Notes: a model not told the origin generated them from the sequence alone. A stretch of DNA of 58,411 bases from Ruditapes philippinarum (GCF_026571515.1 NW_026864517.1:434001-492411), one strand, 5' to 3'. Counted from the stretch's first letter, positions 5,048 to 57,913 are shown. Program-made: numbers and translations.

Positions 5048-5811
5048 ATTAATTGTAATTTAGTAAAAAAATTTGGAATATATCAAGTGCAGAGTATTTC
5101 AATCAGCTAACAGTGGCGTTTTAAATCAAAGGGAGAAAACCGGATAATAGATATAAAGTACTATCAGATGAAGTGGTGGTTAAACTAAATTCAAATTGAT
5201 AAATCAAATTCTTTGTTCTGTTATAAAGATTTTATTTTTGGATTTAAACACAGTTTTTATTATGATTATATCGGCGTTTTTTCCTCCTTATTACCACCAA
5301 TTTCTCCGCAAGTGATTATCTGCGAGGTAATTATGCAATACTGTTATGGTTATGATTTATTACAGAATACTTTAAATATTTCTCTTTGGACATTGAGTCT
5401 AACGTTCATTTAAATATATCTCTGACCACTGAAACAGAAGTCATGTGAGATTGGTAGTCGGCCATTTGCAGAGAAATTTCCGAGATATGTCCAATTTCGA
5501 CGTAAAAGCGAGACGAAAACAAAAACAGAAAAAATGGTGCTTTTCTTAGGTTGCTACCAAACTTTGAACGAATACACTGGATGAGTTTTGGTTTTATGCT
5601 GATGTGTAAGGTGGTCTGCAGATAAGTAAGGTCTGAGAATGAGTAATGGTTTTGTTCTTTTAAAAAAGTTTTAAAAGATAGCCGTCCTATCTCAGCCTGT
5701 GTCAATCTAGGCGAAGAACAAATACAATAAAAGAAGATCTTTTATTAATTTCTTTAGTTTTCATAAGATTTATTCAAATCTGATATTACAAATTCGTATC
5801 TCAAATTTCTA

Positions 5812-8800
5812 TTATTTCAAATCTAACAGTCTCCAGTTTTCCCAAATAATCTTCCTTGTCTACAAAATAAACCATGCTGGTGACGGCCTTGTGAATTTTC
5901 GTGTTCTTTGTTCTATAGTAAATCAGTCACATTTGAGGCTTAATTCTGGATTCCACTGTTCTTGATGAATTATTTACTGTCTTCAACTTTAAACATCAGC
6001 ACTATTTAAGTCAAATGAGGCCCAAAATATAATAGGTTAGCCATCTACTTTTTTTCAGAAATCTTCACTCTGTTGTAACACAGTTTAAATTCACCACTTT
6101 GAAAACTCCTGACTGCTGGTGGGTGGTACATCTTTAATCCTTCCGCCAACAAATGAGTTCCTGGAGAATACACAAAAAACAACTTTTAAACACATCATAT
6201 AACACACAAAAACTACACACATGCAATAAATACACTTTAATTATGACCAATCTAACTAGGGATGACTTAAATTGGGCCACTTCAAAATTTTAAAGAACTA
6301 CTTTCTAGACTACAACGGGTTCGGTCTAATTCCGTACCGGGTTGAGACCTAAATGAATCCAAAATTTAAGTTAAGCCAAAATTTATACTCATTTCCTAGT
6401 AATTTAGTGTTATACAAGTACATTCATATAGGTTTGACATGTCTCTAACAAATTACATTAATGCAGTACAATTTCTTAAATATAAAAATTCATGCGAAAA
6501 ATCAGCCTCGGCCAATAGAATTTTACACAAAAATTTATATCACAAATTCTGTCATATCTCTTGCCAATGGATTTTCTTCAAATAAAATTTGTTGTTACCG
6601 GCTAATGTCATTTAGTTATTTTTATGAAAGAATAAGTCCTTATTGCTTTAAAATTGTAATATTAACTCCATTTAATTTAATGAGAGCATGAAATGTTTGG
6701 TTAAAATACAAGTAATCACAATTAAATGTGCTTTTTCATAACTTTTTCCTTCAACATTACAATAAAACTTACTGATTATGATTTTTACCTATATACCATG
6801 GTAAATAAAGTACAGTACCAAGATATATACCCTATATTGTTTGCTTTAGATATTAGTAAAGACAAACAGAGGTAATCTTAAGTTTAGCAAAGAGGTTACT
6901 ATATCGCCATGGGCTATGTCTTCTGACAAAGTAAGATTAGCCAACTCTCACACAAATAAGGCTAAAAAATGATGGCACATACTGTCTCCCACTTTAAATC
7001 ATTGAGAAGTGTTAAAGTAGTCAAAATTAGAGAAATCTTTTCCTGATATACATCAAAATATCTACCAAATATTGCCCGAGCATTGGGAGTCGTTGCCGTC
7101 AATAGCCTGAAGTTTCAAACTAGACATAAGTTAATTACCTTCTCAACTTGTCCTGACAAATCTGTTGCCAAACTGAGCTGAAAGAGTTCTTCCATAGATC
7201 TTAACCAGTATAAGGTAAGGTCCTGTACTCAAAACCCGGCTTTGGTAACTGCATGGTCTGAAAAAATATGCAACACTAGTACATGTTGAAGGAAATTATA
7301 AGAGGCATTTATGCTGTTATTCTGATATCCAAAAAAAGAAAGAAAATAATTTCTTAATTAATCAATGGCTTGATTTGCAAATTCACACAGGAAGGCTTAA
7401 ATATTGTGTGCTTAAAAATGCATGCATGCATGGAAATAACAGTTTAGACATTATAAACCTAACCTAATTTAACTGCTGTAGCAGCTGCTACAACAACAAA
7501 CAACAAACAATCAACATCAACTGTGTTATTTCTAAATGAGCCAATTATCCATAAACTCACTGTTTTATGACTAGAAAATCTTTTGTGTGTATGTATTAGC
7601 AAATACATTCTGCAGCACAGCAAAACATCAAGTTTCACTACACTGAAAATGCCTATATTTCCAACATGTAAATCACATTTGTCCTAGCTGTTCAATTGTC
7701 AGTTCTGCTTTCATTGAAATACAAGACAATAGTGAATATTTACAAATCTGATTACTACAGCATCAATACTTTGCTGAAACATCAGTGCATATAATGCGTG
7801 GTCCATATGAGCAATAGGTTACTATGGTGCTTGTTCGAATACCATGGCCGGTGCTTCTTGGGCCCCTAAGACCTCTAAAATGAGCTTGCCAATCACTTTT
7901 TTTGCCAAACAGTAACCAGCCTGAAAACATGCACTCCCCAATTTCTTGCAATGCATGGTTTATCCATGATTTAAGATGCATTTCTCTAAAAATTATCATT
8001 TTCCATATGAATGTTATAAAAATAAGCAATAGATCTAGTAAACTGCTAAATACAGGGTGCAAAAATAAAATTTATCAATTTATTAACTGCTTTAAACAAA
8101 ATTTAAATTTCATTATTTTTATTTTAAATGTATTTTTACAGTTTTAATTCAATAAAATGTGGACAATCGTTCACGCAAAAGGTCTGTACCCTTCTTCTGC
8201 ACCTACTGACACAGTAGCAGACATCTACATTTAAAGGGGAGATAACAATAACAACATCTGTCCCAATTTAAAATGTCAAAATTAAAAATTTGAAATAAAA
8301 TTTAAAATTTTCAAACCTGTCAGTTTTCCTTTATTTTCCTGATTTCTATGCATAAACACAACACTGATGCAAAGTTTCATCCATATCCATTAACCAGTTC
8401 CCATTTTTCAAATTTCTCCTCTTGGTGACGGCCTGGTGAATTTTCGTGTTCTTTGTTCTATAGTAAATCAGTCACATTTGAGGCTTAATTCTGGATTCCA
8501 CTGTTCTTGATGAATTATATACTGTCTTCAACTTTAAACATCAGCACTATTTAAGTCAAATGATGCCCAAAATATAATAGGTTAGCCATCTACTTTTTTC
8601 AGAAAACTTCCACTCTGTTGTAACACAGTTTAAATTCACCACTTTGAAAACTCCTGACTGCTGGTGGGTGGGTACATCTTTAATCCTTCCGCCAACAAAT
8701 GAGTTCCTGGAGAATACACAAAAAACACATCATATAACACACAAAAACTACACACATGCAATAAATACACTTTAATTATGACCAATCTAACTAGGGATGA

Positions 8801-10795
8801 CTTAAATTTGGCCACTTCAAAATGTTAAAGAACTACTTTCTAGACTACAACGGGTTGGGTCTAATTCCGTACCGGGTTGAGACCTGCTGTGTATCTCGAG
8901 CTGAATATTTTTGAAATATTTCACCATTCCAGTTTCTAGTAGATTTTCTAGAACATCAAAGTCGCAGCCTTCACAGTCCATAGAAAGTAGATCTACACTG
9001 TATATATCCTACGCCAAGATTTTGGAAAAAAATTCTGTTTGAATTCAATGAACACTTACATTTATTTTCTTCTGACCAAAATCATTCGAATAAAATTTCC
9101 GAACCTTTCCCCTTTGAAAAATTCAATAGCAATAGTTTCCGTCTTCTGTCGAGTCCGAAATTTAAGAACGGACCTGGATATTAAAACTAAGAATTTTTAT
9201 GCAGAACATAAGAATTTTACTTTGCTTTTCTTAGTGTTTCCTCTTAAAATTGCATTGATGTATATTGGAAAAACAAATTTTAAGTTTAATTTTATCCATG
9301 AGTTTTAAATTAGATGCGTTGACATAAAAAAAACATATTTGATAATGAGATATTCTTAAAAACTAAAAAAGTTATGGATATTCGTAATTTTTACGTAAAT
9401 TTAGTATATAAATTATTGTCCGTAAAATCAGAAGAAAATTGTCTTGTTAATCACAAGTGCTTAATAAATAAAAGTAAAAAAAACGGAAAAAAATTTTACA
9501 AAATTTATTTCCCTTTTTTGTAAATTTTAAATAAGAAAGGGGAAGAACCCTTTTCAACAAAAAATGGAAATAAAGGGAAAGCGACATAATTTTAAAATAA
9601 ATATCAATTTCCCAAATAAAAAATAGAAGGGGCTTTTTAAAAAGATTGGTTTGAAAAGAAATTGGGATTTTATTTAAAAATTTACGTCTCGGCTAGGTCA
9701 CGTGATTCGGTTCTCTACCTACCGAGATATGGTGTAGAGTACCATACAGAAGCTCTCAATTAAATTTTAAGATAATTTATTGATTATCCCAAAGAGTTAT
9801 AGTTCACTTATCCTTAGTAGAAAAACTTATCATTAAAAATTAATAACAGTGCTTTACAATAAAATAAGTGTATTTCTCGTTCCCGGTCTGGAGGTAAAAG
9901 TTTAATGTCTAGTTCCGTAAGATTTTAATTTATTCATTCTATTTATGACAAAAAATAAATTTTTATCTTTCGTTTTGTTATTTAGTAATATTTTGATGTT
10001 GAATTTAATGCATCTTTAAATGCAGCCCTTGCACAATATATTTTAAACATTAAATCTTTATATTGCAATGTATACACTGTATTTTATATTACAAAATAAT
10101 ATATCTTACTAATGGGGATTTATATAGGGCATTTCAATATCATTCTATCTTAACGATTGTGGTAAAGGTAACGGAAAGTTAACATACCGCGTCTGCACAA
10201 TATAGGTGACGGAATATAGCATCGACATTTTTTAATTGAATATAAGTAACGGAAAGTGAACATACCGCTTTTTGATAAATAACTGTAATGGAACGTGGCG
10301 TTACCAAATTTTGACAAATATTGGTAACAGAAAGTAATTTTATTAATAAATGCAGGAAATGGCAAGTGATCGATAATTCAAAATTCAAGGGTATATGGCA
10401 TGATGGAGATGTTTACGTGTCAATCAACCGTATTGACTTATTCATTCGCAAAATTTCAAAAAAAAAATCTAAGGCTAAGAATTTCAATTTTTGAACCTCC
10501 CCTTGGAGAGTCACAGTACAAACGCATTCACCAAATTTTTAGTCGCTGGTAAGATATTGTTCATTTCCTACCAACAAACAGTAAACAATTACATTCACAT
10601 AGAAATCTGAAAAAGTATGTTTTATTTAAAACAAGTCAAAAAGTATGAATAAGACCTTGTCTGTAACTATTGCTTCTTTATCAATAAAATAATTGAAAGT
10701 TACTGCTTCTTGGTTAATACTGACACATGTTGCTGATTTTAGGCTGATTTAGCTTAAATATATAAACAAGGAAGCATCTGACCCAAAGTTTCCTG
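5812..10795 (-). pseudogene. FkbM-like methyltransferase copy E: exon 3 split by a 3-kb insertion and partly deleted, exon 2 mostly deleted, exon 1 absent
   Basis: Exon 3 remnants at 5812-5879 (..WENWRLLDLK*) and 8885-9175. Exon 2 remnant at ~10765-10795. Intron 2 is homologous to the other copies. Confidence 0.85.
5880..8884. mobile_element. 3.0-kb element bounded by ~465-bp direct repeats (LTR-like, non-canonical ends), apparently non-autonomous
   Basis: Repeats 5880-6349 and 8425-8884 are nearly identical. Flanked by TGCTG at 5875-5879 and 8885-8889; the paralogous empty site is CATGCTGTG. No long ORF inside. Confidence 0.85.
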
Positions 10796-10849: not shown

Positions 10850-11713
10850 TACGGAATGCCGTTAGGGCCATTGCCTATGAATGTGTTGATCTGAAACGCG
10901 ATAGTCGATGGAACGATGGTGAAAACGCGAAATCACGAAACTACGATGGTGAAAACGCGAAAGCACGATGATGAAAACGCTAAAGTACGATGATGAAAAC
11001 GCGACAGTACGATACTACGATGATGAAAACACGATAAACTATCGTGTTTTCACCATCGTACTGTCGCGTTTTCACCATCGTAGTTTCGTGATTTCGCGTT
11101 TTCATCATCGTACTGTCGTGTTTTCATCATCGTACTATCGCGTTTTCACCATCGTACTATCGCGTTTTCATCATCGTACTGTCGTGTTTTCATCATCGTA
11201 CTATCGCGTTTTCAACATCGTACTGTCGTGTTTTCATCATCGTACTATCGCGTTTTCATCATCGTACTATCGCGTTTTCATCATCGTACTATCGCGTTTT
11301 CACCATCGTAGTTTCGTGATTTCGTGTTTTCACCATCGTACTATCGACTATCGCGTTTCAGATTCATAGGCGATGGCCCTAACGGCATTCTGGAATGCCG
11401 TTAGGGCCATCGCCTATGAATGGTTTGATCTAAAACGCGATACTCGACAGTACGATGATGAAAACGCGAAATCACGAAACTACGATGGTGAAAACGCGAC
11501 AGTACGATGGTGAAAACACGATAGTTTATCGCGTTTTCATCATCGTAGTATCGTACTGTCGCGTTTTCATCATCGTACTATCGCGTTTTCATCATCGTGC
11601 TTTCGCGTTTTCACCATCGTAGTTTCGTGATTTCGCGTTTTCACCATCGTACTATCGACTATCGCGTTTTAGATCAACACATTCATAGGCGATGGCCCTA
11701 ACGGCATTCCGTA
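10850..11713. mobile_element. Fold-back MITE dimer with TACGG...CCGTA termini and 6-bp TSD (IS3EU-like, tentative)
   Basis: TIR TACGGAATGCCGTTAGGGCCAT. TSD ATCAAC at 10844-10849 and 11714-11719; empty site CCCATCAACAGTTCG at ~57958. Internal ~22-bp ACGATGGTGAAAACGCGATAGT repeats form inverted arms. Two units are fused at ~11391. Confidence 0.85.
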
Positions 11714-13274
11714 ATCAACAGTTCGTTAACTTCTCATCAGCAAATAACATAGTATTTAGTTTAAGTAACAACAACAACAAATTCACCATCATTATAATCT
11801 ATTTATCTGGTTGGGTGTAACGTCACACCAAAACAGTACGTATAGTTCCTTTGGCGACTTTCCAGCTTTATTGGGGGAGGAAGATCTCAGGTGCTCTTCT
11901 ATGCTTTATTTCATGCGGTCACCTGAGTAGAACTACCAACGTTCCGTAAGCTAGCTGGAAAGCTCCCTCATAATAACACTGTCATCATCAAAACCATCAT
12001 AACAAGCAGTACTCTTCATCATCAGCATTATGACCCTCGATAACATTATCAATATATCATCGCCATCATTATCATCATCACCAGATCATCATTACCATCA
12101 CCACCACCACCATCAACAACAACAACAGTATATCATCCACATCATTATCATCATCATCTTCATCACCATCATCCGACAACTATCGCAATTATCACGATCA
12201 TCATAATCGGTACCATCCTTATTGTAATCATCAGTAAATCATTATCATCATCATCAACATTTCCTCATCACTATAATTCGAAATATTGAAAATCACTTAT
12301 TCATAAAAGGGGGCTCAATTATGAGCAAGTCAAGTTTCTCATATTTATATGATATTTTACGTTGTTACAACTGAAAAATATATTAATTTAAATGTAATTA
12401 ATAATTTATTAAAATAACCCCCCCCCCCCAAAAAAAAAAAAACAACAACAAAAAAACAACAGTATGACGGATATTGGACTTCGTGTAATCAAGCAATGAT
12501 AATGATTTTTAAGTGATCATTTTTACATGTATATCACTCTTTTTTTGTTAGATTATTTGGTTCAAGTTACCGAGGACCTACTTTTCCTGAAAAAAAAACC
12601 TTCATTTACCTTTTTTTCAGGCCACACATTGGACAACCATTTTTTTTGCTCCGTCATATAACCACGATGGGTCGAACCACATACCCCCGTGATATTACAG
12701 AAAAATTCGTTCGGCGATAAAATATATGAAGTATATTTATAAACAAAGGACATACACATAGAGAAAAGATGAAAAAAAAAACAAAGAAAAGATGCAAAAC
12801 ACTCACACGTACACACGCACAGGCACACACATACATGTATATATTTGACATTTATAAATTTCAGATACAATTTTGTTTTATTTAACAAGTTTTTTTATTA
12901 CATACATAGTATTGATACATTGCAATGCAGCAACAACTTCAATATTTCCATCAACTTTGCGTGCCAAACTTGTCAATCAAGAAAAATAAAAAAGTTGTAC
13001 ATAAATTGTTAGTCCCGTTTTTCTTTGTAAATAATACACAAATCAAAAAATATTATAATTGTATATAAATAACAGTTTCTATGTAATTGTAAATGATTAA
13101 TAAAATGTTAATTCTGTATTTTATAGTTCACAACAACACTTGATTCTTCGTCATGATATCACCCTTATTCAACCATTTACACAGTGTATTTTACATTTCT
13201 TACAGTCATTAGAGATACCATTCTTTTTTGTCCCGACAAACATAAATCAGAGCAATTTCCAAAGGCTACCTCAA

Positions 13275-14389
13275 CTATTTATTAGGTTTCGACATAAACA
13301 CCCGTGCAATAATACCAATCGTTTCGTTGAGAATGTAACCATTGCCAACTTGCCAAACACTATTTGTTCCTAAAATTTCAAATAATTTATATTGTGCATA
13401 TGACCGAAAACTTCCGTTTTTAACAATCACATGATTTTTTCCGTTTGGTTGTCTATTCACTAGTATACAGAGCACACTGAAATCACAGATTGTTGTTTTT
13501 TACTCATATTTCCGACTTTAAAGTAAAGATTACTACTCTTATTCATTATATTAATCTTCAGAGGTACCTCCCAAATATTAATATCAACTCCTTCACTTTC
13601 TTTCTTGTCACCAGGAATAACATCAATTATAACTCTTGTCATCCCATTTCTTTTCAGGATCTAACTTCAAATCATTCTTTCCGTTACGTATTTCGGATGA
13701 TATGTACTGCTAAAACAGTATATTTTCTTCAACGACATGTTCTAGCTCTGCTAACTTAGTCTTCATTGATGTATTAACATTTACAAATATCTCATTTAAT
13801 GCACTTGTCGAAGGGAACGATTTACAATAGCTTTAATCCAATGCATCACATGGTCTAGATGATATTAGAAATATACATCTAGCACGCAGAGCTTTAAGAT
13901 CATACAAAGATGCTTCCTTCAACAACTGTAACAAATCATCCGTCGGTGTTTCTTCTGTAACAGTCTCAAGTATTACTACTTCACATCTTGGTTTTAGCTG
14001 TAGGACCTTGTACTCTTCTAAAAAAGGAAGAATGACCCTAGCATAGTCGCGATTAATTTGGGTGTATGTGTTCGGGTAAATACATCGAAGGAATTCTAAG
14101 ACGTCCCTTAATTTCTTCCCAGGCAATTCTATCTCGTCACTTGACTTTTCTTTGAAGTCGGATTCGAACATCGTATCAAATACTGGTGATGCAAGTGAAA
14201 GAATATTTTTAGCGACGTGTTCCTTCAACAATAAGACACAGATCAGTTCTCCATGGGTTCAGTGAAACGGAAAGTACGCGACTTATCTTCGGTTTGCAAC
14301 ACTGTTTCACTATTTTCATCGGTAACGATATTTTCAAATTCTGAACCCTCAGATTCGTTTACAATTCTGACATTTTCATCTGCCGCCAT
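13275..14389 (-). pseudogene. BTB-MATH copy 3
   Basis: ATG at 14389 (MAADENVRIVNESEG..). Small deletions at ~14218 and ~14255, nonsense TAA at 13833-13835, further frameshifts. Ends VFMSKPNK at 13275. Confidence 0.9.
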
Positions 14390-14530
14390 ATTAAGTGTAG
14401 TTCAGTAAAAGTTCATGGAATGTAACCGTATATGTAGTGTATTTCAATCAGCTAATAATGGCGGTTATACATCAAAGGAGGAAAACCGGGTATTTGACAT
14501 GTACTAGATGATATATAGCGGCAGGATACT

Positions 14531-15564: not shown

Positions 15565-18500
15565 TTATTTCAAATCTAACAGTCTCCAGTTTTCCCACAT
15601 ATGTTTGTATTGATACGTTAATCTATGTGTCCGCCGCATATGTTCCTGGAGTGTACAGTACCGTGTTAAATAATTTTCCTTGTCTATAAAATAAGCCATG
15701 CTGTGTATCTCGAGCTGAATATTTTTGAAATATTTCACCATTCCAGTTTCTAGTAGATTTTCTAAAACATCAAGTTCGCAGCCTTCACAGTCCATAGAAA
15801 GTAGATCTACACTGTATATTCCTACGCCAAGATTTTGGAAAAATTCTGTAGAATTAATGACACTTACATTTATTTTCTTCTGACCAAAATCATTCGAGTA
15901 AATGTTCGAACCTTCGCCTTTGAATTCAATAGCAATAGTTTCCGTCTTCTGGCCGAGTCCGAAATTTAGAACAGTGACCCTGCAGATATAAAATAAGAAT
16001 TTTTATGCATATATTTATGTGTTGACATAAGAAAAAAAAACATGTTTGAGGAAATGATATCCTTAAATGCTAGAAAGTTTGACATAATATGTAATCTTTT
16101 ACGTAAATATAATATAAAGTTATTGTCAGTAAAATCAGAAGAAAATTTTTCTTGTCAATCACAGTGCTTAATAAATAAAAGTAACGAAAAAACTCACTAG
16201 TGACTGCTTAATATAAGTAACGGAAAGTGAAGTTACCACTTTTCGACAAATATGAATAAGGTAAGGCGACATATTCACTTCCTCATAAATAAAGTAACAT
16301 TTCAACTTCTAAATAAATATAGAATGGGTCTTTTAAAAAGATTGGTCTAGAAACGGGATGTGTTCATGAAAAAGACGTCTCGGCTAGGTCACGTGATTCG
16401 GTTCTCTATCTACCGAGATATGGTGTAGAGTACCATACAGAATCTCTCAATCAAATTTTCTCGTTCCCGATCTGGAGATAAAAGTTTACTTCACACGTTT
16501 GTAAAAAGGTCGAGTTTCGTAAGCTTTTAATTTATTCATTGTTTTTATTTTTATGACAAAAAAATGAAATAAATGTCACATGTAAAGATTTTTATCTTTC
16601 GTTTTGTTATTTAAAATATTTGATGTTGAATTTAATGCATCTTAAAATGCAGTCCTTGCGCAATCGGCCGTTCTCAGTTAGAATTTACACCCTTAGTTTT
16701 TACTTGTCGCCACCGTCTATCCTCATTATTGCAGGTTATTTGCCTGTAAATCTATGCTGGTTTAAGAAGGTAAATGTTACCTTAAATAACACACAATAAC
16801 TCGCCATTTGATCATGAATAATTGTTTAATAATATTCACCTAAAGTTACGAAAATGACAGGTTCGTGATTGTCGCCGTCCAATTTATAAAAAGTGAACCT
16901 GTATTTAGATGCTTTAATTGTATTGTTTTAATTTTGTTTCATGCCGTATTATTTTGGAACACTTTACGACTATAAATTTGTAAATTAGATCTCAGTAACA
17001 ATAACTCATAAAAAATGGTAAGGGGTTAGTGTTTGTCGCCGGATAGTATGAAATGTTCGTTATCCTTTTAACCATATATTGCAAGTGAAGTGTTTTTATC
17101 ATTGAAACAACATTACATGTTCTTTTTTGTATTAATATCACAATATAATACTTTCATATTATCACCATGTTCATAGTGTGCACATTTTTTTTATTATAAT
17201 TTATGCAGAATTTAACGTTGTGATGTGGTTTTGGTTAAAATTGAAAGGTTCGTTATCTGATTTTAAGGGTTCATCACTGCAATATGTACTCCCAGCACAT
17301 GAAATGTTCTAAGTTGCGTAAAAATTAGTATATTATGCCAAAAATGAAACATTTTGTAGCTGTATAAACAATATTATTGAATCTGAAATATGCTGAGAAA
17401 AGGTTCGTGATGAAAGGTTCGTGCGGTTATATATTTTACTCGCTGCCGCATTCACTATGCTTGTTTGTAAACGGCTGCGGTTAACAAACATATGTACTAT
17501 GAAGTCATTTGGGTTGAAACCTTTCAATTCTTTATATTTTAAACATTAAATCTTCTAATTACAATGTATACACATATTACAAAATATATCTTAATAATGA
17601 GATTTATATAGAGCGTTTCAAGGTCATTCTATCTGAAAGATCGTGGTAAAGGTAACGGAAAGTTAACTTACCGCGTCTGCATAATATAAGTAACGGAAAA
17701 TAGCATCGACATTTCTTAATTGAAAAAAGTAACGGAAAGTGAATCTACCGCTTTTTTGATAGATATCTGATTTGGAACGTGGCATTGCCAATTTTTGACA
17801 AATACTGGTAACAGAAAGTGATTTTGTTAATAAATAAATGTAGATGACCGATCATTCAAAATTCATGGGTATATGGCATGATGGAGATGTTTACGTGTCA
17901 ATCAACCGTTTTGACTTTATCGCAAAATTTACAAAAAAAAATCTAAGGCTATGAATTTCAATTTTTGAACCACCTTTTGGAGAGTCACAGTACAAACGCA
18001 ATCACCCAAATTTTGTCGCTGGTAAGATATTGTTAGCTTCCTACCAACATACAGTAAACAATTACATTCACATAAAAAATCTGAAAAAGTCACAAAGGTG
18101 ACCTTATAAGACCTTGTCTATAGATGACTCTTTCTGCTTCTTTATCAATAAAGTAACGGAAAGTTACCTAACCGCTTCTTGGTAAATACTGACAAATGTT
18201 GCTGATTTTATGCTGGTTTAGCTTAGATATGTGACTTAACAGTTTACCTTGGATTGTCTTTGAATTTCTCTTGTAAAAGTGTAGCATAGTACGGTATCGG
18301 CTCCACTATCAGATGTCGTGGGTTGTAGACGGCGGTAAACAAGGAAGCATCTGCTCCAAAGTTTCCTGGTTTTATATAATGGTGAAGTGAATAATTGACA
18401 TATTATAACACCCATTAACAGTTCGTTAACTTTTCATCAGCTGATAACATGGTATTCAGTTTTATTACGATGCATATTATGATTTAGATTTTCTTTTGAA

Positions 18501-19493
18501 TAAACAGTATGCTGTCCATTTTTTCAAACAATAGATCACGCACAGCTATAGAATTCATAATTTTTAAATAGACAGATTATAGAATAACGGTGGTACAAAG
18601 AAATAGTAGGGAAAGTTTATTTGTCACGTGTGCTCTGATAAACTGCCATGAGCCTCACTCAAATTATAACTTGCAGACGTATTAACTGCTAAAGGCACAC
18701 GTGTCAAATATTTCGTGCGGACGTATAACTGGATGTATTTCAATTAATCTATCAGAGTTTGGGCATTATGGATAGGCTAATCCTAACCCCTTGCCTAACA
18801 ATGTGCCGAATAATAGTTTTCGATGCCCCTTCTGTACCACCGAAACAAAAAAACCTAACACAATTATAAATAAATTGTGAAGATAACATATCTTTTGACT
18901 CTTCAATTGCACAAATAATATACATGTTCAGCTAAATAATTATGAAGCTCACACTTTATTCTCATTTTTTGTTCAAACAACATTTCATGAAATTATCCAA
19001 ATGAGAAGTTCTATTGTTTTTATCACTATTTGAAATAATTATGGAAAATGTACCCATTGCCGTAAAGATACAAATCAAAGTACGTTTATGAATGAAATAT
19101 TTTACCTCCAACCTCAATAAGTATCGTGTTATTTTCTTTCAGATAATCATGATGATTGATGCAGACATATTTGTCCTTCACAAAGTTCTCGGCGCCTTTT
19201 AACCAGTCGACATCTGCATATTGCCGGCAGTGAGAAATCCTATTAATTTGATCATAGCTTAAAGAATGGTTGAACAAGGCTTTTCCTCCAACAGCAGGAG
19301 ATGGATGTCCGTCCAGGAAAAGTTGTAAATGTTTATTATAAACCACTTTCTTTTGTTCGCCATCTGTGAAAAATTGTCTAATATCCGACCTGTTTTCTTT
19401 TAAATTATGATTTTGAGTACTGTTAAACAAATAAATTATCAAAACAACTATCACACAAGCTGTCAGTATCCTTGCTACATTTAGCGTTTTCAT
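15565..19493 (-). CDS. FkbM/Methyltransf_21-like SAM-dependent methyltransferase, type II membrane, copy A, intact: join(19106-19493,18248-18365,15565-15979), 306 aa
   Basis: GT-AG introns of phase 1 and 2 join in frame (388+118+415=921 nt). Signal-anchor ILTACVIVVLIIYLF. Motif I ILIEVGG|GNFGAD spans the splice, then LIVEP, VTVLNFGLG, VDLLSMDCEGCELDVL, IQLEIH. Minus-strand AATAAA at 15494-15499. Confidence 0.88.
16665..17533. mobile_element. ~870-bp insertion unique to intron 2 of methyltransferase copy A (unclassified TE fragment)
   Basis: Paralogous introns read ..GC(A/G)CAATATATTTTAAA.. uninterrupted (~10031, ~57041). Here CGGCCGTTCTCAGTTAG... intervenes. Confidence 0.65.
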
Positions 19494-21084: not shown

Positions 21085-21579
21085 TTTTATCTTGTTTATC
21101 GTGGATTATTACCGTTATTTTTATCGTGACTGTTGTGGTTTGTAGTTGATACCCTATTACCGTCCTGCTTGCCTTTGCTTTTCGTGCTACCGTGGTTTAT
21201 CGTGATTACTATGGTATATCGCGATTACCGTGGTTAAAACGATTTATTACCGTTTTTATCGTATTTGTTGTGGTTTATCGTCGTAAGCATAGTCTATCGT
21301 GATATTTTTATATACAAACATTATAAGGAACATAACGAATCAGATACTAGTACCCTTTATAATACGCGCACTTTACAGCCTTAAAGGGGCTCAACTCATA
21401 ACACGCTGGAAAAAGTGTAATGATGCAGTTATCATTCTTATAAAGCTTCTGTCATGATGTACACGTATAATGTTACGTGTTTTGTTAATAACTTGTGATA
21501 AAATTTGAACAATTTTCTGATCTTTTACCTTAAAATAACTTGTCCGATTGTGAACAAAATAATTATGACTTTGGAAAAA

Positions 21580-21880
21580 AATCACGTTGTTATATTATAC
21601 AATAAATAAGGAGATAAAAATCACATTGTTGTATTATACAATAAATAAGATATAAAAATCCCGTGGTTTGGTTGTATTGTACAATACATAAGGAGATAAA
21701 AATAACGTTGTTGCATTATACAACAAATTAGAAGATAAATAACCTTGCTGTTGTATTATACAATAAAGTAGGAGATAAAATAACGTTGTTGTATTATATA
21801 ATAAATTAGTAGATAAAAATCACGTTGTTGTATTATACAATAAATCAGGAGAATAAAAATTTCGTTTCTGTATTATACAG
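21580..21880. repeat. ~38-bp minisatellite (TTGTTGTATTATACAATAAATTAGGAGATAAAAATCACG), ~8 units
   Basis: Direct reading. Confidence 0.9.
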
Positions 21881-24152: not shown

Positions 24153-25268
24153 CTATTTGTTAGGCTTCGACATGAACACCTGTGCAATAATACCGATCTT
24201 TCCGTTGAGAATGTAACCATTTTCAACTTGCCCAATAGTATATGTTCCTAAAATTTCAAATGTTCGATATTGAAAAATTGACGATAAACTTCCGTTGTAA
24301 ACAGTCACATGATTTTGTCCACTTGGTTGTCTATTTACTAGTATGCACAGCACACTTAAACCGCATATAGCTGTATTTTTACTAATGTTTTCGACTTTTA
24401 AGTAAAGCTTACTACTCTCTCTCGTTATGCTGATCTTCAGAGGTACCTCCCAAATATTAATATCAACTCCTTCACTTTCTTTCTTGTCACCAGGAATAGC
24501 ATCAATTATAACTATGGTCTTGTCATCCCATCTCTTTTCAAGATCTAACTTCAAATCCTTCTTTCCGTTACGTATTTCTGATGATATGTACTGCTTAAAC
24601 AGTATATTTTCTTCAACGATCTGTTCTTGCTCTGCTAACTTATTCTTCATTGATGTATTAACATTTACAAAAATCTCATTTAACGCATTTGCCGATGGAA
24701 ACGACTTACAATAGCTTTCATCCAATGCATCACATGGTCTAGATGATATTAGAAATATACATCTAGCACGCAGAGCTTTAAGATCATATAAACATGCTTC
24801 CTTCAACAACTGAAACAATTCATCTGTCGATGTTTCTTCAGTGACAGTCTCTAACAGCACTAGTTCACATCTAGACTTATGTTGAAAAACCTGGTATTCT
24901 TCTAAAAGAGGAAGAATTGCCCTTGCGTTGTCGCGATTTATTTGGGCACATGTGTTCGGGTAAATACATCGAAGGAATTCCAAAACGTCCGTTAGTTTCT
25001 TTCAAGGCAATTCTAGCTCGTCACTTGACTTTTCTTTGAAGTCGGATTGGAACATTGCATCAAAAACTGGTGACGCAAGTGAAAGAATCACCTTTGCGAC
25101 GTACAGCTTTGTTCCTTCCACAACAAGACACAGATCAGTTCTCCAAGTTTTTTCAGTGAAACCGAAAGTAGGCGATTTAACCTCGGCTAAAGCTACGATC
25201 TTACTTTCTTCATCGGTAACAATATGTTCAGCTTCGTCTGCAATTCTGACGTTTTCAACTGCCTCCAT
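24153..25268 (-). pseudogene. BTB-MATH copy 4; full-length frame with one in-frame TGA
   Basis: The 1116-nt frame is continuous. TGA at 25002-25004 replaces the Gly of LELPGKK (GGG in paralogues). Confidence 0.8.
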
Positions 25269-28200
25269 GCTAGGTGAAGTTTAGTTAAAGATAATAAAAT
25301 TTATCCGCTAGACTACAGTGAACTTCTATCAGCTACAGTGGCGGTTACAAATCAAAGGGAAAAAACCCGGACCTTTGAAAATCAGTTACGGTGACGACAA
25401 TGTTTTGGATAAGATTTTCCTCGCTTCAATTATAATATTTCAGTCTTATCTGTTACACGAAGATTCATTCTAGTTCTTTTAGATCCCGAAAAATTCATCG
25501 ACCAGTTTCAGTTTCCAATTAAAGAAATGATTTAAAGTATCTACGGTCGAATTTCAATTGATAAAATAAAAAAATCATAATTTATCATACCAAAATCATG
25601 CTTATAAGATAGTTTTTAAAATCAGTGCTTTGTCCAGTTTTATTATCAGTTACTCTGTAAGTTACTGTTAATATAAATTCTGTATACTGTGTTAAAAGGG
25701 AATATACTAGAAATAACACTATTTTTTAAAAAGAACTTGGACTTATGAATATTCAAGAAACATTGTATCATTTCTGTGTGAAAAGATGCAAAATATTGAA
25801 TATACATTGTAACAAATAGATGTCAACAATTTCTTTCAGTAAAGAGGCATACTTTAAATAGTGAAACATTGTTACAGTTTTGACAATATAGATATCCAAC
25901 GTTACAGATGTTACAGATTATAAAATTATGTTGCGGAATAAATATATTTCAGTTTTATGTGTTTTCTGTATGCATAATTATATTAGTAAGATTTCTAAAA
26001 TCATTTTTTTTCTCTTGTAGATTATTGTAAAATATAAATAACTTGGGTGCCTAAATTTATATATTTCTAACACACGGTTCCCTAAGGTTAAAATATCTTG
26101 TCATTCAAAAACGAAATAAAATTTATCCCTTGATTTGTGACAGCTGGACCCTAATCGTTCCTTAAGGTCGGATTTCGCCATCGACGTGGTATTGTGTTTT
26201 TATGAATTAAACATTATGGACAAATAAGTATATAGACCGAATGCCATAGTGAGTATATCTCAAGCTTATCACAAGTGCGAGCCAGGTTCGAATATTTTAC
26301 ATTGGAACCACTTTTTTAAATTGATCTATCTGCATTATTTGCAATAGTCCTTTGTATTGCAAATTTTATGATGTCACTCTCTTATTATTTCAATAATTGA
26401 TTTAGTGTCAATAACGTCGTTAGTTTCATTTTGATAACAGGCTTTCTCGTTAATCATTACATTTTGTGAAATTTAAAAGAAAATAAGTGTCTTCTTCTAC
26501 AGCATTTAACATTTACACCGACATATCTTCCGGTTTGTATCTTTTACAGAAATATACCACATCGGAATTGGGCTAAATGAGACCGTTCAATCTTAGTTAA
26601 TGACGAAAGCAAATAATTTTCAGTATTACAATGCTGTTTAAATTCAATATATGTTTCAAAGCAACATTTCTAACATTATTACACCAATCCGTTTTATATT
26701 TAACAAACAATGCAATTTCGACATCTTTTAGGTTTCCAGGTAACTTGATTTCATAGCAGTGTGACATTTAAATTTGATGCAGGATAATCTTTACATTATA
26801 GCACCATATTTTTCAGAAACAATTGTAATCAAAGTTGACATTTATTTTTGGAAATCTATCGTCCGGTATATAAGTATCTTGGATATACACGCATGATGTA
26901 TATGCTGTTGTTTGTGTTTAACAGTTCATTAAAAAGCTGATATAAAACAACAATGTTTGTCAATTAAGAAATTCAGTAACAATTTACAAATTACCATTTT
27001 TTTCAGCTCTTGTAATTTAAATGTAATTTGTATTGCGAATGGCCATGACAGGTGTTCTTAGAGGAATATTCAATAAAAAATAAATCCAGTGTAGCATTAT
27101 AAATTGCAAATAAACTGTTCAATAATATAATATATTCGTATATGCAAATCCCTGATATTGTATTATACTTATTTCTTTAATATCTGGTTATAATATAGAG
27201 GATATACAAGTAGTATAACAATAAATAAATTTGAATATTGTATTATGAGACCATCTGACTAAGACAATTTAGATATTTAAAAAAATGACTTGTAGTATCT
27301 TAATTAATACAAAACAGAAATGTTTTTAAAAGACATTTTACAATGGAATGCAACAAGCATTTCCAATATTTCAATCTGGACAACTTTGTCAACCCAGAAA
27401 AATAACATGATAAACAAACAAAACAGAATGTTGCACAAAACGGATTTCTTCTCCCTTTCGCACTGTTTGGGGCGAGAAGATTTTTCGCCAAAACATCAAC
27501 ATCAGTATTAACAACAGGTTTACATAGAAATTAATAAGAATGACAAAACCATCAATTGAAATTCTAAATTTAGAATAATTTGGTTTTATTCAGTCTAATT
27601 ATATAAAACATCATCGTGACCGAGGGGCTGCACGCTCGTTTACAATGTGAGAGGTCTGGAGTTCAAATCTCAGTCGTGGCAACTAATTTTTTTCTAAGAG
27701 ATTAAAAAAAAAATTAGCCAGGATATGCAAGGGTATATTATGCTGTCATAAAGAAATGAACATAAATGATTTCATGATGCAAGAAAAAACTCTGGTTATG
27801 CAAAATTCCGTATGTATTCAAACTCAAACTGTTATAGCAAAAAATCTAAACGCAGTCGCTGCAACTCGGTGCCCTGCAAGATTAATTATAGTATTTCAAA
27901 ATAAACTTATACAGAAAAAATACAGATTTAGATTGCAAAGATCAGAAAATACCACAAAGCTCGCAGCCATTTGATTTATATGCAAATGTATTTGTAACAA
28001 GACCAATATGTTTTAAGTGACTGTGTGCACTAATTTATGTTGAGGCACTCTTTTTTTAATGTGATTTTAAACGTTTTTTTTTTCATATTCTGTAAATATT
28101 TAACTTTGCATGAGAGTAATCACTTTCTAGAGGGAATCACCGTACACACAAAAGAAAATGTATTGATACACTTTAACATAATGATAAAGTCTCCATTAAT

Positions 28201-28578
28201 AATAAGTTTGTTATGAATGAAGCTAATAAATAGACAATAAAAAATAATTTCAAATCAGTTTACAAAAGACTCACTTTTTAAAACAGTTGCAAAGTGCATC
28301 TTTTAAACTTTATCAGTCCTGATAAAATTTAAAGTTCTAACACGAAGACAAACTTTAATATGATATCGCTTATATGGTTCATTCTGGTGACAAGGGTAAA
28401 GAGAGTAAATAAACAGCATTGTTATTCTGCACTCCCTGGGACTGAATTACAACTAACACGAACACAATAAGCCAAGTGATCCATAGATGTTAAATTAAAC
28501 AATTTACAAAAATACATAAATATCTTCACAATTTTCTACCTTACCAACAATTTCTCCACATAAATACTCTAATTTAAA

Positions 28579-29774
28579 TTAACGGTATATTAGAAAACAG
28601 AGTTTTGTTTTGCAATGGCTATCAGTCCATTTGTTTGGCTTCGACATGAACAACTTTATAATATAGCCGATCTTTCCGTTGAGAATGTAACCACTGTTAA
28701 TGCTGTTGATATACGTGTTGTCAAAAACTTCAAATGTTACAGATTTATTATGTTGATTCAAATCCGCCTTTGTGAACAATCGTGCCATTTTTTCCATTTG
28801 GATGTCTATTAACGATTACTGCAGAGTACATGTATATCACAGGCAGTCTTATATTCACCAATGCTTTTCTAACACCACAGTTAAAGCTTACTGTTTACTT
28901 TTTTGTGTAAATTGTAAGAGGGACCTCCCAAATCTCAATTTCAAACTCCTTCACTCTCGTTGTTGTCAGGACAAATTGCTTCAAAATAGAACTATGATCT
29001 TGTCGTCCCATTTCTTTTCAGGATCTAACTTCAATCTGTTGTTCCCCGTAATGTTTGACGATACATACTGCATTAACAACTCACATTTTTCTTCAACCTG
29101 TTCTAGCTCAGCTATTCTTATTTCTTCATTGATGTATTAACATGTAGAAATATCTCATTAATGCACTTGCCGAATCCGGGAACGACTTACAGTAGTTTTC
29201 GTCCAATACATCACATGGCCTAGATGATATCAGAAAATATGCATCTAGCACGCAAAGCTTTAAGATCATACAAACATGCTTCATTCAACAACTTGAAACA
29301 GATCATCCGTCGATGTTTCTTCTGTAACAGTCTCAAGTATAACTACTTCACATCTCGGTTTAAGCTGTAAGGACCTGGTACTCTTCTAACAAAGGAAGAA
29401 TGGACCCTAGCATTGTCGCAATTAATTTGGGTGTATGTGTTCGGGTAAATACATCGAAGGAATTCTAAAGACGTCCCTTTAGTTTCTTCCCAGGCAATTC
29501 TAACTCGTCATTTGACTTTTCATTAAAGTCAGATTGAAACATTGCATCAAATACTGGTGATGCAAGTTGACAGAATCACCTTTGCGACGTAAAGCTTTGT
29601 TCCTTCAACAACAAGACACAGATCAGTTCTCCAAAGAGGGGTTCAGTGAAACCGAAAGTAGGCGACTTATCTTCGGCCAGTGCCACTGTTTCACTATCTT
29701 CATCGGCAACGATATTTTTCAACTTCTGAACCCTCAGATTCGTTTACAATTCTGACGTTTTCACCTGCCTCCAT
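28579..29774 (-). pseudogene. BTB-MATH copy 5 (indel-riddled duplicate of copy 6)
   Basis: ATG at 29774. Sequence equals 35390-36570 apart from many single-base insertions. Confidence 0.8.
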
Positions 29775-37387: not shown

Positions 37388-40300
37388 TTATTTCAAATCT
37401 AACAGTCTCCAGTTTTCCCACATGTGTTTGTATTGATACGTTAATCTATGTGTCCGCCGCATATGTTCCTGGAGTGTACAGTACCGTCTTAAATAATCTT
37501 CCCTGTCTATAATAAAATAAGCCAAGGTGTGTATCTCGAGCTGAATATTTTTGAAATATTTCACCATTCCAGTTTCTAGAAGATTTTCTAGAACATCAAG
37601 TTCGCAGCCTTCACAGTCCATAGAAAGTAGATCTACACTGTATATTCCTACGCCAAGATTTTGGAAAAATTCTGTAGAATTAATGACACTTACATTTATT
37701 TTCTTCTGACCAAAATCATTCGAATAGATGTTAGAACCTTCACCTTTCAATTCAATAGCAATCGTTTCCGTTTTCAGTCCGAGTCCGAAATTTAGAACAG
37801 TGACCCTGCAGATATAAATTACAGACATAAGATATCGATTCGCTTTTCTTAGTGTTTTCCATTAATTTGTTTCATTGTGCATATGGAAAACATATTTTTA
37901 AGTTTAATTCTGTCATTAGCTAAATTAGATGTGTTGACATAAGAAAAAAAACACATATAGATTGGTCTGGAAACGAGACGTTTTCACAAAACAAAGACGC
38001 CTCGGCTAGGTCACGCGATTCGGTTATCTACGTGTATTTATAGCCATACAAAAAATCAAATTTTGAGATAATTTGTTGATAAGTCCAAAGAGTTATTGTT
38101 AAGTTATCCTTAGTACATTGACAACAATTACAAATGTACAATGAAATTAGTGTTTTTCTAGTTCCCGGTCTCGAGGTAAAAATGTACTTCACACGTTTTG
38201 AAAAAGGTCGAGTTTCGTAAGCTTTTTATTTATTCATTGTTTTTGTGACAAAAAATGAAATAAGTGTCACATGTTAAGATTTTTTTATCTTTCGTTCTGT
38301 TTTTTAGAAATATTTGATGTTGAATTTAATGCATCTTAAAATGCAGCCCTTCCGCGATATATTTTAAGCATTGAATCTTCATATTGCAATGTATGCACTG
38401 TATTTTATGTTACAAAATAATATATCTTACTAATGGGGAATCATATAGGACTTTTCAAGATCATTCTATCTGAAAGATCGTGGTTTAGGTACTTACCGCG
38501 TCTGCACAATATAAGTAATGGAAATAGCATCGACATTTCTTAATTTTTATTTGAATAAAAGTAACGGAAAATGAACCCACCACTTTTTTGATAAATAGTG
38601 GCATTGCCAAATTTTGACAAATATTGGTAACAGAAAGTGATTTTGTTAATAACAAGTGACCGATAATTCAAAATTCATGGGTATATGTCATGATGGAGAT
38701 GTTTAAAGGAACTCCACTGAGGTTCAAATGCCTAAAATCATAAAAAAAATTTTTTTACACAGATCAGCTTGGACACGTAAAACAGGAAGACTTGCAAACA
38801 AATAATTAAGAAATTTACTCAGAAATGAATTGAAAAGCGTATTTTTGTGACATTTTTTATGATTTGAGTGAAAAGCGTTTAAACGCTTTTCAATTTTGGG
38901 TCATTTTCAGTACTTGAATAAATATCCTGGATCAAAGCAATAAGAGCAAATGATTCTAAAACTGTTGCACAGCACAAGTTACTTATTAGACCTACACTCA
39001 AACTGAGGCATTAATGCTCAGAAAGAATATTTCCAGTCTGCGTCAGTTCAAAAAAAATCTGAGTGGGAGTCCCTTTAAGTGTCAATTTACTGTTTTAACT
39101 TTACAATGAATTTCAATTTTTGAACCTCCTTTTGGAGAGTCACAGTACAAACACAATCACCAAAATTTTAGTCGCTGGTAAGATATTGTTCGCTTCCTGC
39201 CAACAAACAGTAAACAATTACATTCACATAGAAATCTGAAAAAGTCTGTTTTATTAAAACAATTCACAAAGGTATGAATAAGACATTGATTGTAAATGAC
39301 TCTTGCTGCTTCTTTATCAATAAAGTAACGGAAAGTTACCTAACCGCTGCTTGGTAAATACTGACAGCTGTTGCTGATTTTATGCTGGTTTAGCTTAGAT
39401 ATGTGACTTAACAGTTTACCTTGGATTGTCTTTAAATTTCTCTTGTAAAAGTGTAGCATAGTACGGTATCGGCTCCACTATCAGATGTCGTGGGTTGTAG
39501 ACGGCGGTAAACAAGGAAGCATCTGACCCAAAGTTTCCTGGTTTTATATAATGGTGAAGTGAATAATTGACATTTTATAACACTCATCAACAGTTCGTAT
39601 ACTTTTCAATAGCAAACAACATAGTATTCACTTTTATTAGAATGCATTTTATGATTGATATTTTCTTTTGAATAAACAGTATGCTGGCCATTGTTTCAAA
39701 CAATAGAACACGCACTGATAGATTATAGAATAACGGTGGTACAAAGAAATAGTAGGAAAAGTTTATTTGTCACGTGTGCTCTGATAAACTGCCATGAGCC
39801 TCACTCAAATTATAACGTGCAGATGTATTAACTGCCAAAGGCACACGTGTCAAATATTTCGTGTGCACGTATAACTGGATGTATTTCAATTAATCTATCA
39901 GAGTTTGGGCATTATGGATAGGCTAATCCTAACCTTGCCTAACAATGTGCCGAATAATAGTTTCCGATCTCCCTTCTGTACCACCGAAACAAAAAAACCT
40001 TACACAATTATAATAAATTGTGAAGATAACATATCTTTTGATTCTTCAAATGCACAAATAATATACATGTACAGCTAAATAATTATGAAGCTCACACTTT
40101 ATTCTCATTTTTTGTTCAAGCAACATTTCATGAAATTATCCAAATGAGAGAAGTTCTATTGTTTTTATCACTATTTGAAATAATTATGAAAATGTGCCCA
40201 TTGCCGTAAAGATACAAATCAAAATACGTTTATGAATGAAATACCTTACCTCCAACCTCAATAAGTATCGTATTATTTTCTTTGAGATAATCATGATGAT

Positions 40301-40628
40301 TGATGCAGACATATCTGTCCTTAGCAAGTTCTCGGCGCTTTTATCCAGTCGACATATTGCCGACAATGAGAAATCCTATTAATTGATCATAGCTTAAAGA
40401 ATGGTTGAACAAGGCTTTTCCTCCAACAACAGGAGATGGATGTCCGTCCAGGAAAAGTTGTAAATGTTTATTATAAACCACTTTCTTTTGTTCGCCATCT
40501 GTAAAGAATTGTCTAATATCCGACCTGTTTTCTTTTAAATTCTGATTTTGAGTACTGTTATACAAATAAATTATCAAAACAACTATCACACAAGCCGTCA
40601 GTATCCTTACGCCATTTAGCGTTTTCAT
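37388..40628 (-). CDS. FkbM-like methyltransferase copy B: join(40250-40628,39420-39537,37388-37805); three 1-nt losses in exon 1
   Basis: Exons 2 and 3 are open with conserved splice sites. Exon 1 differs from copy A by a 6-nt deletion and three homopolymer contractions at ~40322-40385, which may be sequencing errors. Confidence 0.78.
38707..39074. mobile_element. Kolobok-like TTAA MITE (duplicate of 31960-32314)
   Basis: Same termini and TTAA flanks. Confidence 0.8.
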
Positions 40629-45751: not shown

Positions 45752-45799
45752 GCTAAGTGTAGTTTAGATCAAGTTAATAAATGTATCCACTAGAGTGAA

Positions 45800-55193: not shown

Positions 55194-55470
55194 ATTAAAT
55201 GTAGTTCACTTAAAGTTCTTATTCAATCAGCTGACAATGGCGGTTATAAATCAAAGGGAGAAAACCGGATATTAGGTATTAAACACAATTACATAAAATG
55301 GCGGTTAAATTTGATTAATCATATTATTTGTCCTGTTATAAAGATTTTTTTTCTGGATTTTGAACACAGGTTTTGATTATGATAATATTTCGGCGGTTTT
55401 TCCACCAATTTCTCCGCAAGTGATTCTCTACGATATAGGGATATAGCATATTTCGGCCTAAAAGCCAGAC

Positions 55471-55760: not shown

Positions 55761-57913
55761 TTATTTCAAATCTAACAGTCTCCAGTTTTCCCACATGTGT
55801 TTGTATTGATACGTTAATCTATGTGTCCGCCGCATATGTTCCTGGAGTGTACAATACCGTGTTAAATAATCTTCCTTGTCTATAAAATAAGCCATGCTGT
55901 GCATCTCGAGCTGAATATTTTTGAAATATTTCACCATTCCAGTTTCTAGTAGATTTTCTAGAACATCAAGTTCGCAGCCTTCACAGTCCATAGAAAGTAG
56001 ATCTACACTGTATATTCCTACGCCAAGATTTTGGAAAAATTCTGTAGAATTAATGACACTTACATTTATTTTCTTCTGACCAAAATCATTCGAATAAATG
56101 TTCGAACCTTCGCCTTTCAATTCAATAGCAATAGTTTCCGTCTTCTGTCCAAGTCCGAAATTTAGAACAGTGACCCTGCAGATATAAAATAAAAAAATAT
56201 GCAGACATAAGATATATACATTTGCTTTTCTTAGTGTTTCCTCTTAATTCATTGAAAATTTATTGAAAACAAATTTTAAGTTTAATTCTTCAATGAATTA
56301 AATTAGATGTGTTGACATAAAAAAAATATATTTAGGTAATGATATTCTTAAATGCTAGAAAGTTTGGCATAATTTGTAATCTTTTACGTAAATATAATAT
56401 AAAGTCATTGTCAGTAAAATCAGAAGAAGAATTTTCTTGTCAATCACAGTGCTTAATAAATAAAAGTAACGAAAAAAACTCACTAGTGACTGCTTAATAT
56501 AAGTAACGAAAGTGAAGTTACCACTTTTCGACAAATATGAATATGGTAAAACGACATATTCACTTCCTCATAAATAAAGTAACATTTCAACTTCGAAATA
56601 TAAAATATAGGAAGGGTCTTTTAAAAAGATTGGTCTGGAAACGAGATGTATTCATGAAAAAAAGATGTCTCGGCTAGGTCACGTGATTCGGTTCTCTACC
56701 GTAGAGTTCCATACAGAAACTCTCAATCAAATTTTAAGATACTTTGTTGATTATTCAAAAGAGTTATTGATAACTTATTCTTAGTAACTTAACTTATCAT
56801 TAATAAATAATTACAATGATTTACAATGAAATAAGTGCTTTTTCTCGTTCCTGGTCTGGAGATAAAAGTTTACTTCACACGTTTGGAAAAAGATCGAATT
56901 TCGTAAGTATTTCATTTATTCATTGGTTTTAATGACAAAAAATAAAATAAATGTCTCATGTAAAAATTTGTTTTTATCTTTCGTTCTGTTATTTAGAAAT
57001 AATTGATGTTGAATTTAATGCATCTTAAAATGCAGCCATTGCGCAATATATTTTAAAATTTAATCTTCATATTGCAATGTTAACACTGTATTTTATACTA
57101 CAAAATATATTTTACTAATGGGGATTTATATAAGAGGTTTCAAGATCATTCTATCTGAAAGATTGTGGTAAAGGTAACGGAAAGTTAACTTACCGCGTCT
57201 GCATAATAAGAAATGGAAAATTGAAATTGAATATCAGTAACGGAAAGTGAACCTACCGCTTTTGATAAATAACTGTAATGGAACGTGGCTCTGCCAATTT
57301 TTGAAAAATATTGGTAACAGAAAGAGATTTTGTTAATAAATGTAGGTAATGGCAATTGACCGATCATTCAAAGTTCAAGGGTGTATGGCATGATGGAGAT
57401 GTTTACGTGTCAACCGTTTTGACTTTTTCGAAAAATTTACAAAAAGATTCTAAACTATGGATTTCAATTTTTGAACCTCCTTTTGGAGAGTCACAGTACA
57501 AACGCAATCACCAAAATTTTAGTCGCTGGTAAGATATTAGTCATTTCATACCAACAAGCAGTAAACAATTACATTCACATAGACATCTGAAAAAGTCTGT
57601 TTTATTAAAACAATTCACAAAGGTATGAATAAGACATTGATTGTAAATCACTCTTGCTGCTTCTTTGTCAATAAAGTAACGAAAAGTTACCTTACCGCTT
57701 CTTGGTAAATACTGACAGCTGTTGCTGATTTTATGCTGGTTTAGCTTAGCTGATTTTATGCTGGTTTAGCTTAGATATGTGACTTAACAGTTTACCTTGG
57801 ATTGTCTTTGAATTTCTCTTGTAAAAGTGTAGCATAGTACGGTATCGGCTCCACTATCAGATGTCGTGGGTTGTAGACGGCGGTAAACATGGAAGCATCT
57901 GACCCAAAGTTTC
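55761..57913 (-). CDS. FkbM-like methyltransferase copy D, exons 2 (57796-57913) and 3 (55761-56175); exon 1 expected beyond the window end
   Basis: Both exons are open, have the same lengths as copy A (118 and 415 nt) and keep their splice sites. Confidence 0.85.

Follow-up and report, generated by a model that had tools for sequence, protein, structure and literature searches.

A stretch of 58,411 nt from the clam Ruditapes philippinarum (GCF_026571515.1 NW_026864517.1:434001-492411, hereafter the window, in whose coordinates all positions are given) carries a three-exon gene, copy A, whose product is predicted to be a Golgi glycan O-methyltransferase, a reading to which we give a probability of about 0.6. 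Overall, fucose would be the likeliest acceptor, at odds somewhat short of even; this sugar is suggested by analogy with bacterial relatives of the protein, whose genes in many cases adjoin or are fused to fucosyltransferase genes.

The three-exon model with an open frame is confirmed. Joined, the minus-strand exons give 921 nt coding for 306 residues with a single terminal stop, all introns are GT-AG, and an in-frame stop lies immediately 5' of the ATG; the sister copies B and C retain the same splice sites. The parts of the gene are as follows.

19106..19493, minus strand: coding exon 1 of copy A, 388 nt, with the ATG, a short basic tail, a hydrophobic anchor, the stem and the first half of the S-adenosylmethionine (SAM) motif; its GT donor is at 19105-19104.
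19425..19469, minus strand: predicted single membrane segment, core residues 9-23, hydropathy peak 2.43; in the AlphaFold model of the homolog P0023 the N-terminal helix spans 2-28.
18366..19105, minus strand: intron 1, 740 nt, GT-AG, phase 1, skipped by one contig in each of the runs X3 and X4.
18248..18365, minus strand: coding exon 2, 118 nt, which supplies the remaining half of the SAM motif and the acidic E151 at the end of strand 2.
15980..18247, minus strand: intron 2, 2268 nt, GT-AG, phase 2, containing dispersed repeat DNA.
15565..15979, minus strand: coding exon 3, 415 nt including the TAA, with the FkbM core and the motifs DCEGCE, QxExH, TH and WExW, above the PF05050 and TIGR01444 cut-offs.

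The SAM motif is interrupted by intron 1 (EVG on one side, GNFG on the other), and skipping of exon 2 leads to a stop at codon 134. The initial annotation had described this 118-nt exon as unannotated and as completing the motif: the completion holds, while for the family the exon is not new, as the RefSeq models P0190 and P0037 of sister copies contain it. The type II-like topology proposed at the same time is supported by hydropathy. The protein has one hydrophobic peak (Kyte-Doolittle mean 2.43 in a 19-residue window starting at residue 4), six N-glycosylation sequons and six cysteines, and its layout of short tail, one N-terminal membrane segment, stem and C-terminal catalytic domain fits Golgi type II enzymes.

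By profile score the product is shown to belong to the FkbM family, as had been proposed. Exon 3 alone passes the cut-offs of both PF05050 (32.4 bits, cut-off 22.7) and TIGR01444 (40.3 bits, cut-off 37.7), and P0037, which is 95% identical, reaches 39.8 in the FkbM family profile test; exons 1 and 2 alone gave no Pfam or NCBIfam match. Many of the mollusc members score too low for the Pfam cut-off, and PF05050 is found on 13% of the Atlas cluster. In copy A the SAM site is kept (E127, G129, G130, N131, G133, E151, P152). The AlphaFold model of P0023 (44% identical, predicted local distance difference test score 91.8) adopts a Rossmann class I methyltransferase fold. In Foldseek the model is matched best by the FkbM structure 2py6 (E 1.6e-5), which VIA ranked second (Z 12.8, root-mean-square deviation 4.2, 187 residues aligned), unrelated class I methyltransferases being tied within 1 Z; because of these ties the fold gives no substrate. 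A PDB sequence search with the family profile found no relative at E <0.001. With the FkbM family (PF05050, TIGR01444, 2py6) the clam protein thus has in common the two cut-offs passed, the class I Rossmann fold (modelled on P0023), the glycine-rich SAM motif and an acidic residue following strand 2, whereas its subfamily stands apart by GG for GA in motif I, by the QxxxH, TH and WExW motifs, and by an N-terminal anchor, a stem and four extra cysteines.

The structural ties also fit a different kind of enzyme, a luminal or secreted small-molecule O-methyltransferase (acting on phenolic, pigment, xenobiotic or lipid substrates) whose N-terminal segment would be a cleaved signal or an endoplasmic reticulum anchor. 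Small-molecule methyltransferases occur among FkbM proteins, and recent tandem duplication with many broken copies, as seen in the window, would suit detoxification genes as well. We consider this improbable: the bacterial branch of the subfamily lies in polysaccharide clusters, where 38 of 68 upstream neighbours are glycosyltransferase, nucleotide-sugar or ABC exporter genes, and the stem of 60-100 residues has no evident small-residue cleavage site, as judged by eye from the sequence.

A second alternative dispenses with catalysis. Drosophila Star and METTL24 are, we assume, animal secretory-pathway proteins with FkbM-like domains, and Star presumably uses the fold to bind or escort cargo; copy A could likewise encode a non-catalytic type II membrane protein. 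The clam sequences match PF13383 (METTL24-like, Methyltransf_22) weakly and fall under its cut-off, the scores being 19.4 and 17.7 bits for a cut-off of 22.4. In the Atlas, a feature search started from the limpet homolog P0049 did return arthropod clusters at 0.90-0.91, one of them named Protein Star (a lead only, with no alignment), and R111 and S194 are lost in copy A. Such an escort role nevertheless appears very unlikely, given that the SAM-site residues listed above are all kept and that E234, G235, E237, Q257, H261, T286, H287, W297, E298 and W300, common with the bacterial members, are kept too.

The glycan methyltransferase reading is best approached through the relatives of the protein. 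A homolog search with full-length P0001 (39% identical over 232 residues) returned 2256 matches; the best 150 of these split in a FastTree phylogeny into a eukaryote-type and a bacterial-type branch (support 84 and 93). Compared with a profile built from 40 bacterial-type relatives, the spliced copy A protein reaches 150.8 bits, versus 59.8 with one of 26 other FkbM proteins, and the bacterial-type profile scored higher in 14/14 eukaryote-type proteins. On this comparison, the product of copy A is a member of a distinct FkbM subfamily, uncharacterised so far, whose predicted membrane-anchored form is new. Its nearest non-eukaryote relatives are the members of the bacterial, GT10/GT11-linked subfamily (A3), which share the GG, EG.E, Q...H, TH and W.WE.W-type motifs and differ by having no anchor and no conserved cysteines, and by R111 and N232, which are C and D in copy A; among them we found no member with a tested function.

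The eukaryote-type branch has acquired features of its own. At a threshold mean of at least 1.6, a hydrophobic N-terminus is present in 59 of 88 eukaryote-type rows (fragments account for many of the others) and in none of the 84 labelled bacterial-type rows. In a chosen set of 50 full-length eukaryote-type proteins, C89, C233, C236 and C277 occur in 50, 50, 49 and 50 proteins, respectively, and are not common residues in 40 bacterial-type proteins, and a sequon at 211 is found in 30/50 versus 2/40. We infer that anchor and cysteine pattern are the marks to be expected of a domain transferred to the lumen of the secretory pathway. The named animal homologs are all from molluscs (Mercenaria, Crassostrea, Ostrea, Saccostrea, Pinctada, scallops, Haliotis, Lottia, Patella, Gigantopelta), and the reach to nematodes that the initial annotation suggested finds no echo among them: no nematode member was met in the 30 clusters looked up, many matches being unnamed, so that absence is not shown. 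Outside animals, named eukaryote homologs come from Phalansterium and, weakly, Alexandrium, to which the Atlas adds diatom-rich clusters. FastTree divides the family into many old mollusc paralog groups.

It is the bacterial branch that offers a clue to the acceptor. From GTDB we took its best 80 loci of 531, of which 73 were usable (six lacked a called anchor open reading frame, and L021 nearly duplicated L020 and was left out); as a control, one strong PF05050 match was taken from each of 60 Bacteroidota genomes, 55 being usable and five lacking an anchor open reading frame. Neighbours were scanned at E 1e-5 upstream and in the control, and at 1e-7 downstream. A GT10 or GT11 gene is adjacent or fused in 32/73 loci of the branch versus 1/55 control loci (GT11, Pfam). 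The enrichment is also found among Bacteroidota-titled test loci (18/32; versus control, Fisher p ~1e-8 with kinship ignored), and the 32 positive anchors fall into 30 groups when sorted at 70% identity and into 24 at 60%, from at least eight phyla by record title. Of 68 upstream neighbours, 19 are glycosyltransferases (eight of them GT10 or GT11), 9 nucleotide-sugar enzymes and 10 ABC exporter subunits; the 71 downstream neighbours include 23 GT11 and 2 GT10. With local profiles built from these loci, GT11 occupies the +1 position in 23/71 loci as against 18/567 genes at other positions, and GT2 has no +1 peak; many control loci adjoin GT2, GT4 or flippase genes. Fusions are in line with this pattern: 2/9 long anchors are GT10 fusions, GT11 is fused in P0182 and P0239, and 42 homologs chosen mostly for length include three fusions to GT10 (P0068, P0073, P0081), one to GT92 (P0149) and four to a sulfotransferase. 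The glycan acceptor first proposed for copy A is therefore supported by gene neighbourhoods, that is by association, and the enzymatic activity itself stands as a prediction. As an observation apart, the bacterial loci (L019-L098) represent an uncharacterised FkbM subfamily that accompanies GT11 and GT10 within polysaccharide clusters of many phyla, and this branch is in itself a candidate O-methyl-fucose pathway for surface polysaccharides.

Known systems provide partial parallels. The link of tectonin lectins to methylated glycans belongs to the literature background. The rhizobial enzyme NoeI presumably carries an FkbM domain; it is bacterial and soluble, and is likened here by description, with no claim of sequence closeness. 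The nematode transporter samt-1 is, we assume, of the MFS_5 family, and the clam genome contains MFS_5 genes as well as 25 GT11 matches. NoeI O-methylates oligosaccharide fucose (2-O, on Nod factors; PMC8678110). C. elegans needs a candidate SAM transporter to methylate alpha-1,2-fucose and mannose (PMC6422873, PMC7614267), and the Golgi-lumen methylation supplied in this way (PMC6422873) resembles what we propose for the clam; the pathway differs in that its methyltransferases are still to be identified, according to the same two papers. Since a sialate 8-O-methyltransferase activity from starfish has been characterised (cited in PMC6994554), animal glycan methyltransferase activity is biochemically known. 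In molluscs, PMC8699351 and PMC6272458 describe 3-O-, 4-O- and 6-O-methyl hexoses and methylated fucose, and PMC10301044 reports an A-type antigen whose fucose is methylated at O-3 in C. gigas and at O-4 in O. edulis; both oysters have homologs of the clam protein. A literature search, largely without full texts, found no publication tying the FkbM family to animal glycan methylation and no mollusc gene named for glycan methylation.

The same kind of enzyme could in the clam methylate mannose, galactose or N-acetylgalactosamine instead of fucose, which we include in the overall probability and regard as rather unlikely. These three sugars are methylated in molluscs too (PMC8699351, PMC10301044), the paralog groups are many and old, and residues 111, 232 and 259 have changed in the clam subclade; the sole acceptor clue found, on the other hand, is the fucosyltransferase families.

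Splicing was examined in runs X1-X4, presumed to be RNA (the type is guessed and not on record), and in raw-read runs X21-X24, sampled at 4-12% each. X3 and X4 each yield one contig that lacks precisely introns 1 and 2; on the plus strand the intron ends read CT..AC. Both predicted junctions are thus seen in public contigs of probable RNA runs; these contigs, however, look like sister copies, sharing substitutions and a 6-nt deletion (at 19211) with copy B, so splicing is observed for the sister copy and would extend to copy A itself. In X1, one contig runs to the end of exon 1 and continues with 8 loose letters matching exon 2, and the X2 contig is unspliced and diverged. The matches of distant paralogs in the genome break at the same positions as the copy A exon ends. 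Purifying selection on the gene is shown by the nonsynonymous and synonymous divergences (dN/dS) from sister copies: 0.009/0.077, 0.022/0.130 and 0.018/0.148 for exon 3 (ratios 0.12-0.17) and 0.041/0.158 for exon 1 (0.26). Separately, dispersed repeats within both introns (16650-17540 and 19005-19060) attract most reads and contigs, with loose ends on either side.

Several points weigh against the proposed function of copy A. An adjacent fucosyltransferase is missing from 41/73 bacterial loci, and 26/73 have none within 6 kb; the control is limited to one phylum, and bacterial GT11 enzymes can transfer other deoxy sugars. The support of 84 for the eukaryote-type branch is weak by FastTree, and the 50 full-length eukaryote-type proteins were in part picked for a hydrophobic N-terminus. 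Animal and bacterial members are only ~30% identical, and for this reason the acceptor may have changed. Copy A has C at position 111, where R is found in 37/50 eukaryote-type and 37/40 bacterial-type proteins, as well as S194N, N232D and E at 259 (Q in 40/40 bacterial-type proteins), D232 and E259 being states of other FkbM proteins. Venerid relatives share R111 to C and N232 to D and mostly have E at 259; because residues 111, 232 and 259 are changed, fucose is less strongly suggested for copy A than for the family. No glycan analysis of R. philippinarum was met in the literature covered. Finally, expression of copy A is low or unclear: raw reads of the X21-X24 samples contain no joint at either intron, exon depth is 0-8 in two runs sampled at ~4-5% and close to zero in two others, and at position 15765 in X21, 14/15 reads show a letter other than that of copy A.

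Low read depth, junction contigs of sister type and at least two broken copies in the window would all suit a copy A that is a redundant, nearly silent duplicate heading for decay within a real family. We judge this unlikely, since the frame is open, the splice sites are intact and dN/dS is 0.12-0.26, and since an X1 contig over 15683-15962 (280 nt) fits copy A exon 3 with one difference and without the B and C variants.

Copy A is part of a larger array. Exon 3 has 16 matches in the 1.4-Gb genome, and in the window the methyltransferase gene alternates in tandem with BTB-domain genes, with five methyltransferase copies and nine BTB matches. One methyltransferase copy is intact (A), one has 1-nt deletions (B), one ends at the contig edge (C) and two are broken.

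37388..40628, minus strand: copy B, the same three exons, exon 1 having lost 6 nt in one deletion and 1 nt in each of three others, the latter in short single-base runs.
55761..57913, minus strand: copy C, exons 2 and 3 intact, the position of exon 1 lying past the contig end.
30610..32785, minus strand: broken copy in which exons 2 and 3 carry numerous small indels; it lies within a 6.8-kb duplicate arranged head to tail with the copy B unit and 97.8% identical to that unit.
8885..10794, minus strand: broken copy with a partial exon 3 with indels and 32 nt of exon 2; its exon 3 end is at 5812-5879.

The 1-nt deletions of copy B may be assembly errors, because they lie in short base runs and are absent both from the B-type spliced contigs, which do have the 6-nt deletion, and from a B-type copy on another contig. 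The 6.8-kb duplicate (26098-32915 and 32916-39669), whose first copy is rich in small indels, may reflect recent duplication or noisy assembly. A second contig (L013, L014; G000:C15762:10000-30000) shows the same layout, with two further copies of the methyltransferase alongside BTB genes, and is another part of the array or the other haplotype.

In RefSeq, P0037 (R. philippinarum, 193 residues, 'uncharacterized') consists of exons 2-3 of copy B and a different first exon, and P0190, which comes from a different contig, follows the copy A structure through exons 1-2 and into the beginning of exon 3, then stops early; the matches retrieved contain neither a protein identical to copy A nor a full-length model of its subclade in R. 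philippinarum. There is also a candidate non-coding first exon (donor 21905, acceptor 19539) which is kept in units A and B (in copy B at ~42490-42537): P0037 joins the copy B version of it directly to exon 2, and an X1 contig starts at 19537, beside the candidate acceptor.

The BTB genes lie on the minus strand at 789-1025, 3914-5059, 13278-14401, 24156-25280, 28630-29780, 35447-36582, 44621-45763, 50344-51479 and 54179-55205. Their coding region is intronless, for ~380 residues with an N-terminal PF00651 and a C-terminal 140 residues without Pfam match; 44621-45763 alone is one open frame, the rest having frameshifts or stops. A functional tie to the methyltransferase was considered and set aside: the two are co-duplicated here, yet the 10-kb stretches at four distant paralogs (L015-L018) contain no BTB match. 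The window further contains an inverted repeat at 10850-11715 (arms of ~270 nt, 97% identical, with internal short repeats) and short tandem repeat blocks at 21574-21879 and 41869-42202, common to units A and B.

How would a Golgi glycan O-methyltransferase of this type work? We hypothesize that the single N-terminal hydrophobic segment, uncleaved, anchors the protein in the Golgi and places the catalytic domain in the lumen, where SAM would be used for O-methylation of a terminal glycan sugar. There, the four cysteines gained only in the eukaryote-type branch could form two disulfides and N211 could be glycosylated, while SAM might be brought in by an MFS transporter, the route suggested for nematode samt-1. 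By association with its bacterial relatives, the enzyme would act after a fucosyltransferase and methylate a hydroxyl of the sugar just added; tandem duplication together with the changes at 111, 232 and 259 may have let the clam subclade shift sugar or position.

More broadly, this family may be the missing animal glycan O-methyltransferase, which we propose tentatively and with rather less than even confidence: a eukaryotic branch of the fucosyltransferase-coupled bacterial FkbM proteins, moved to the Golgi by an anchor and disulfides and expanded in molluscs, where paralogs would determine, species by species, the 3-O/4-O methylation of fucose and of further terminal sugars on blood-group-like glycans. 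The family, its predicted acceptor and the few residues singled out make the question of invertebrate glycan methylation directly testable, for which a single recombinant domain and a panel of glycans would suffice.

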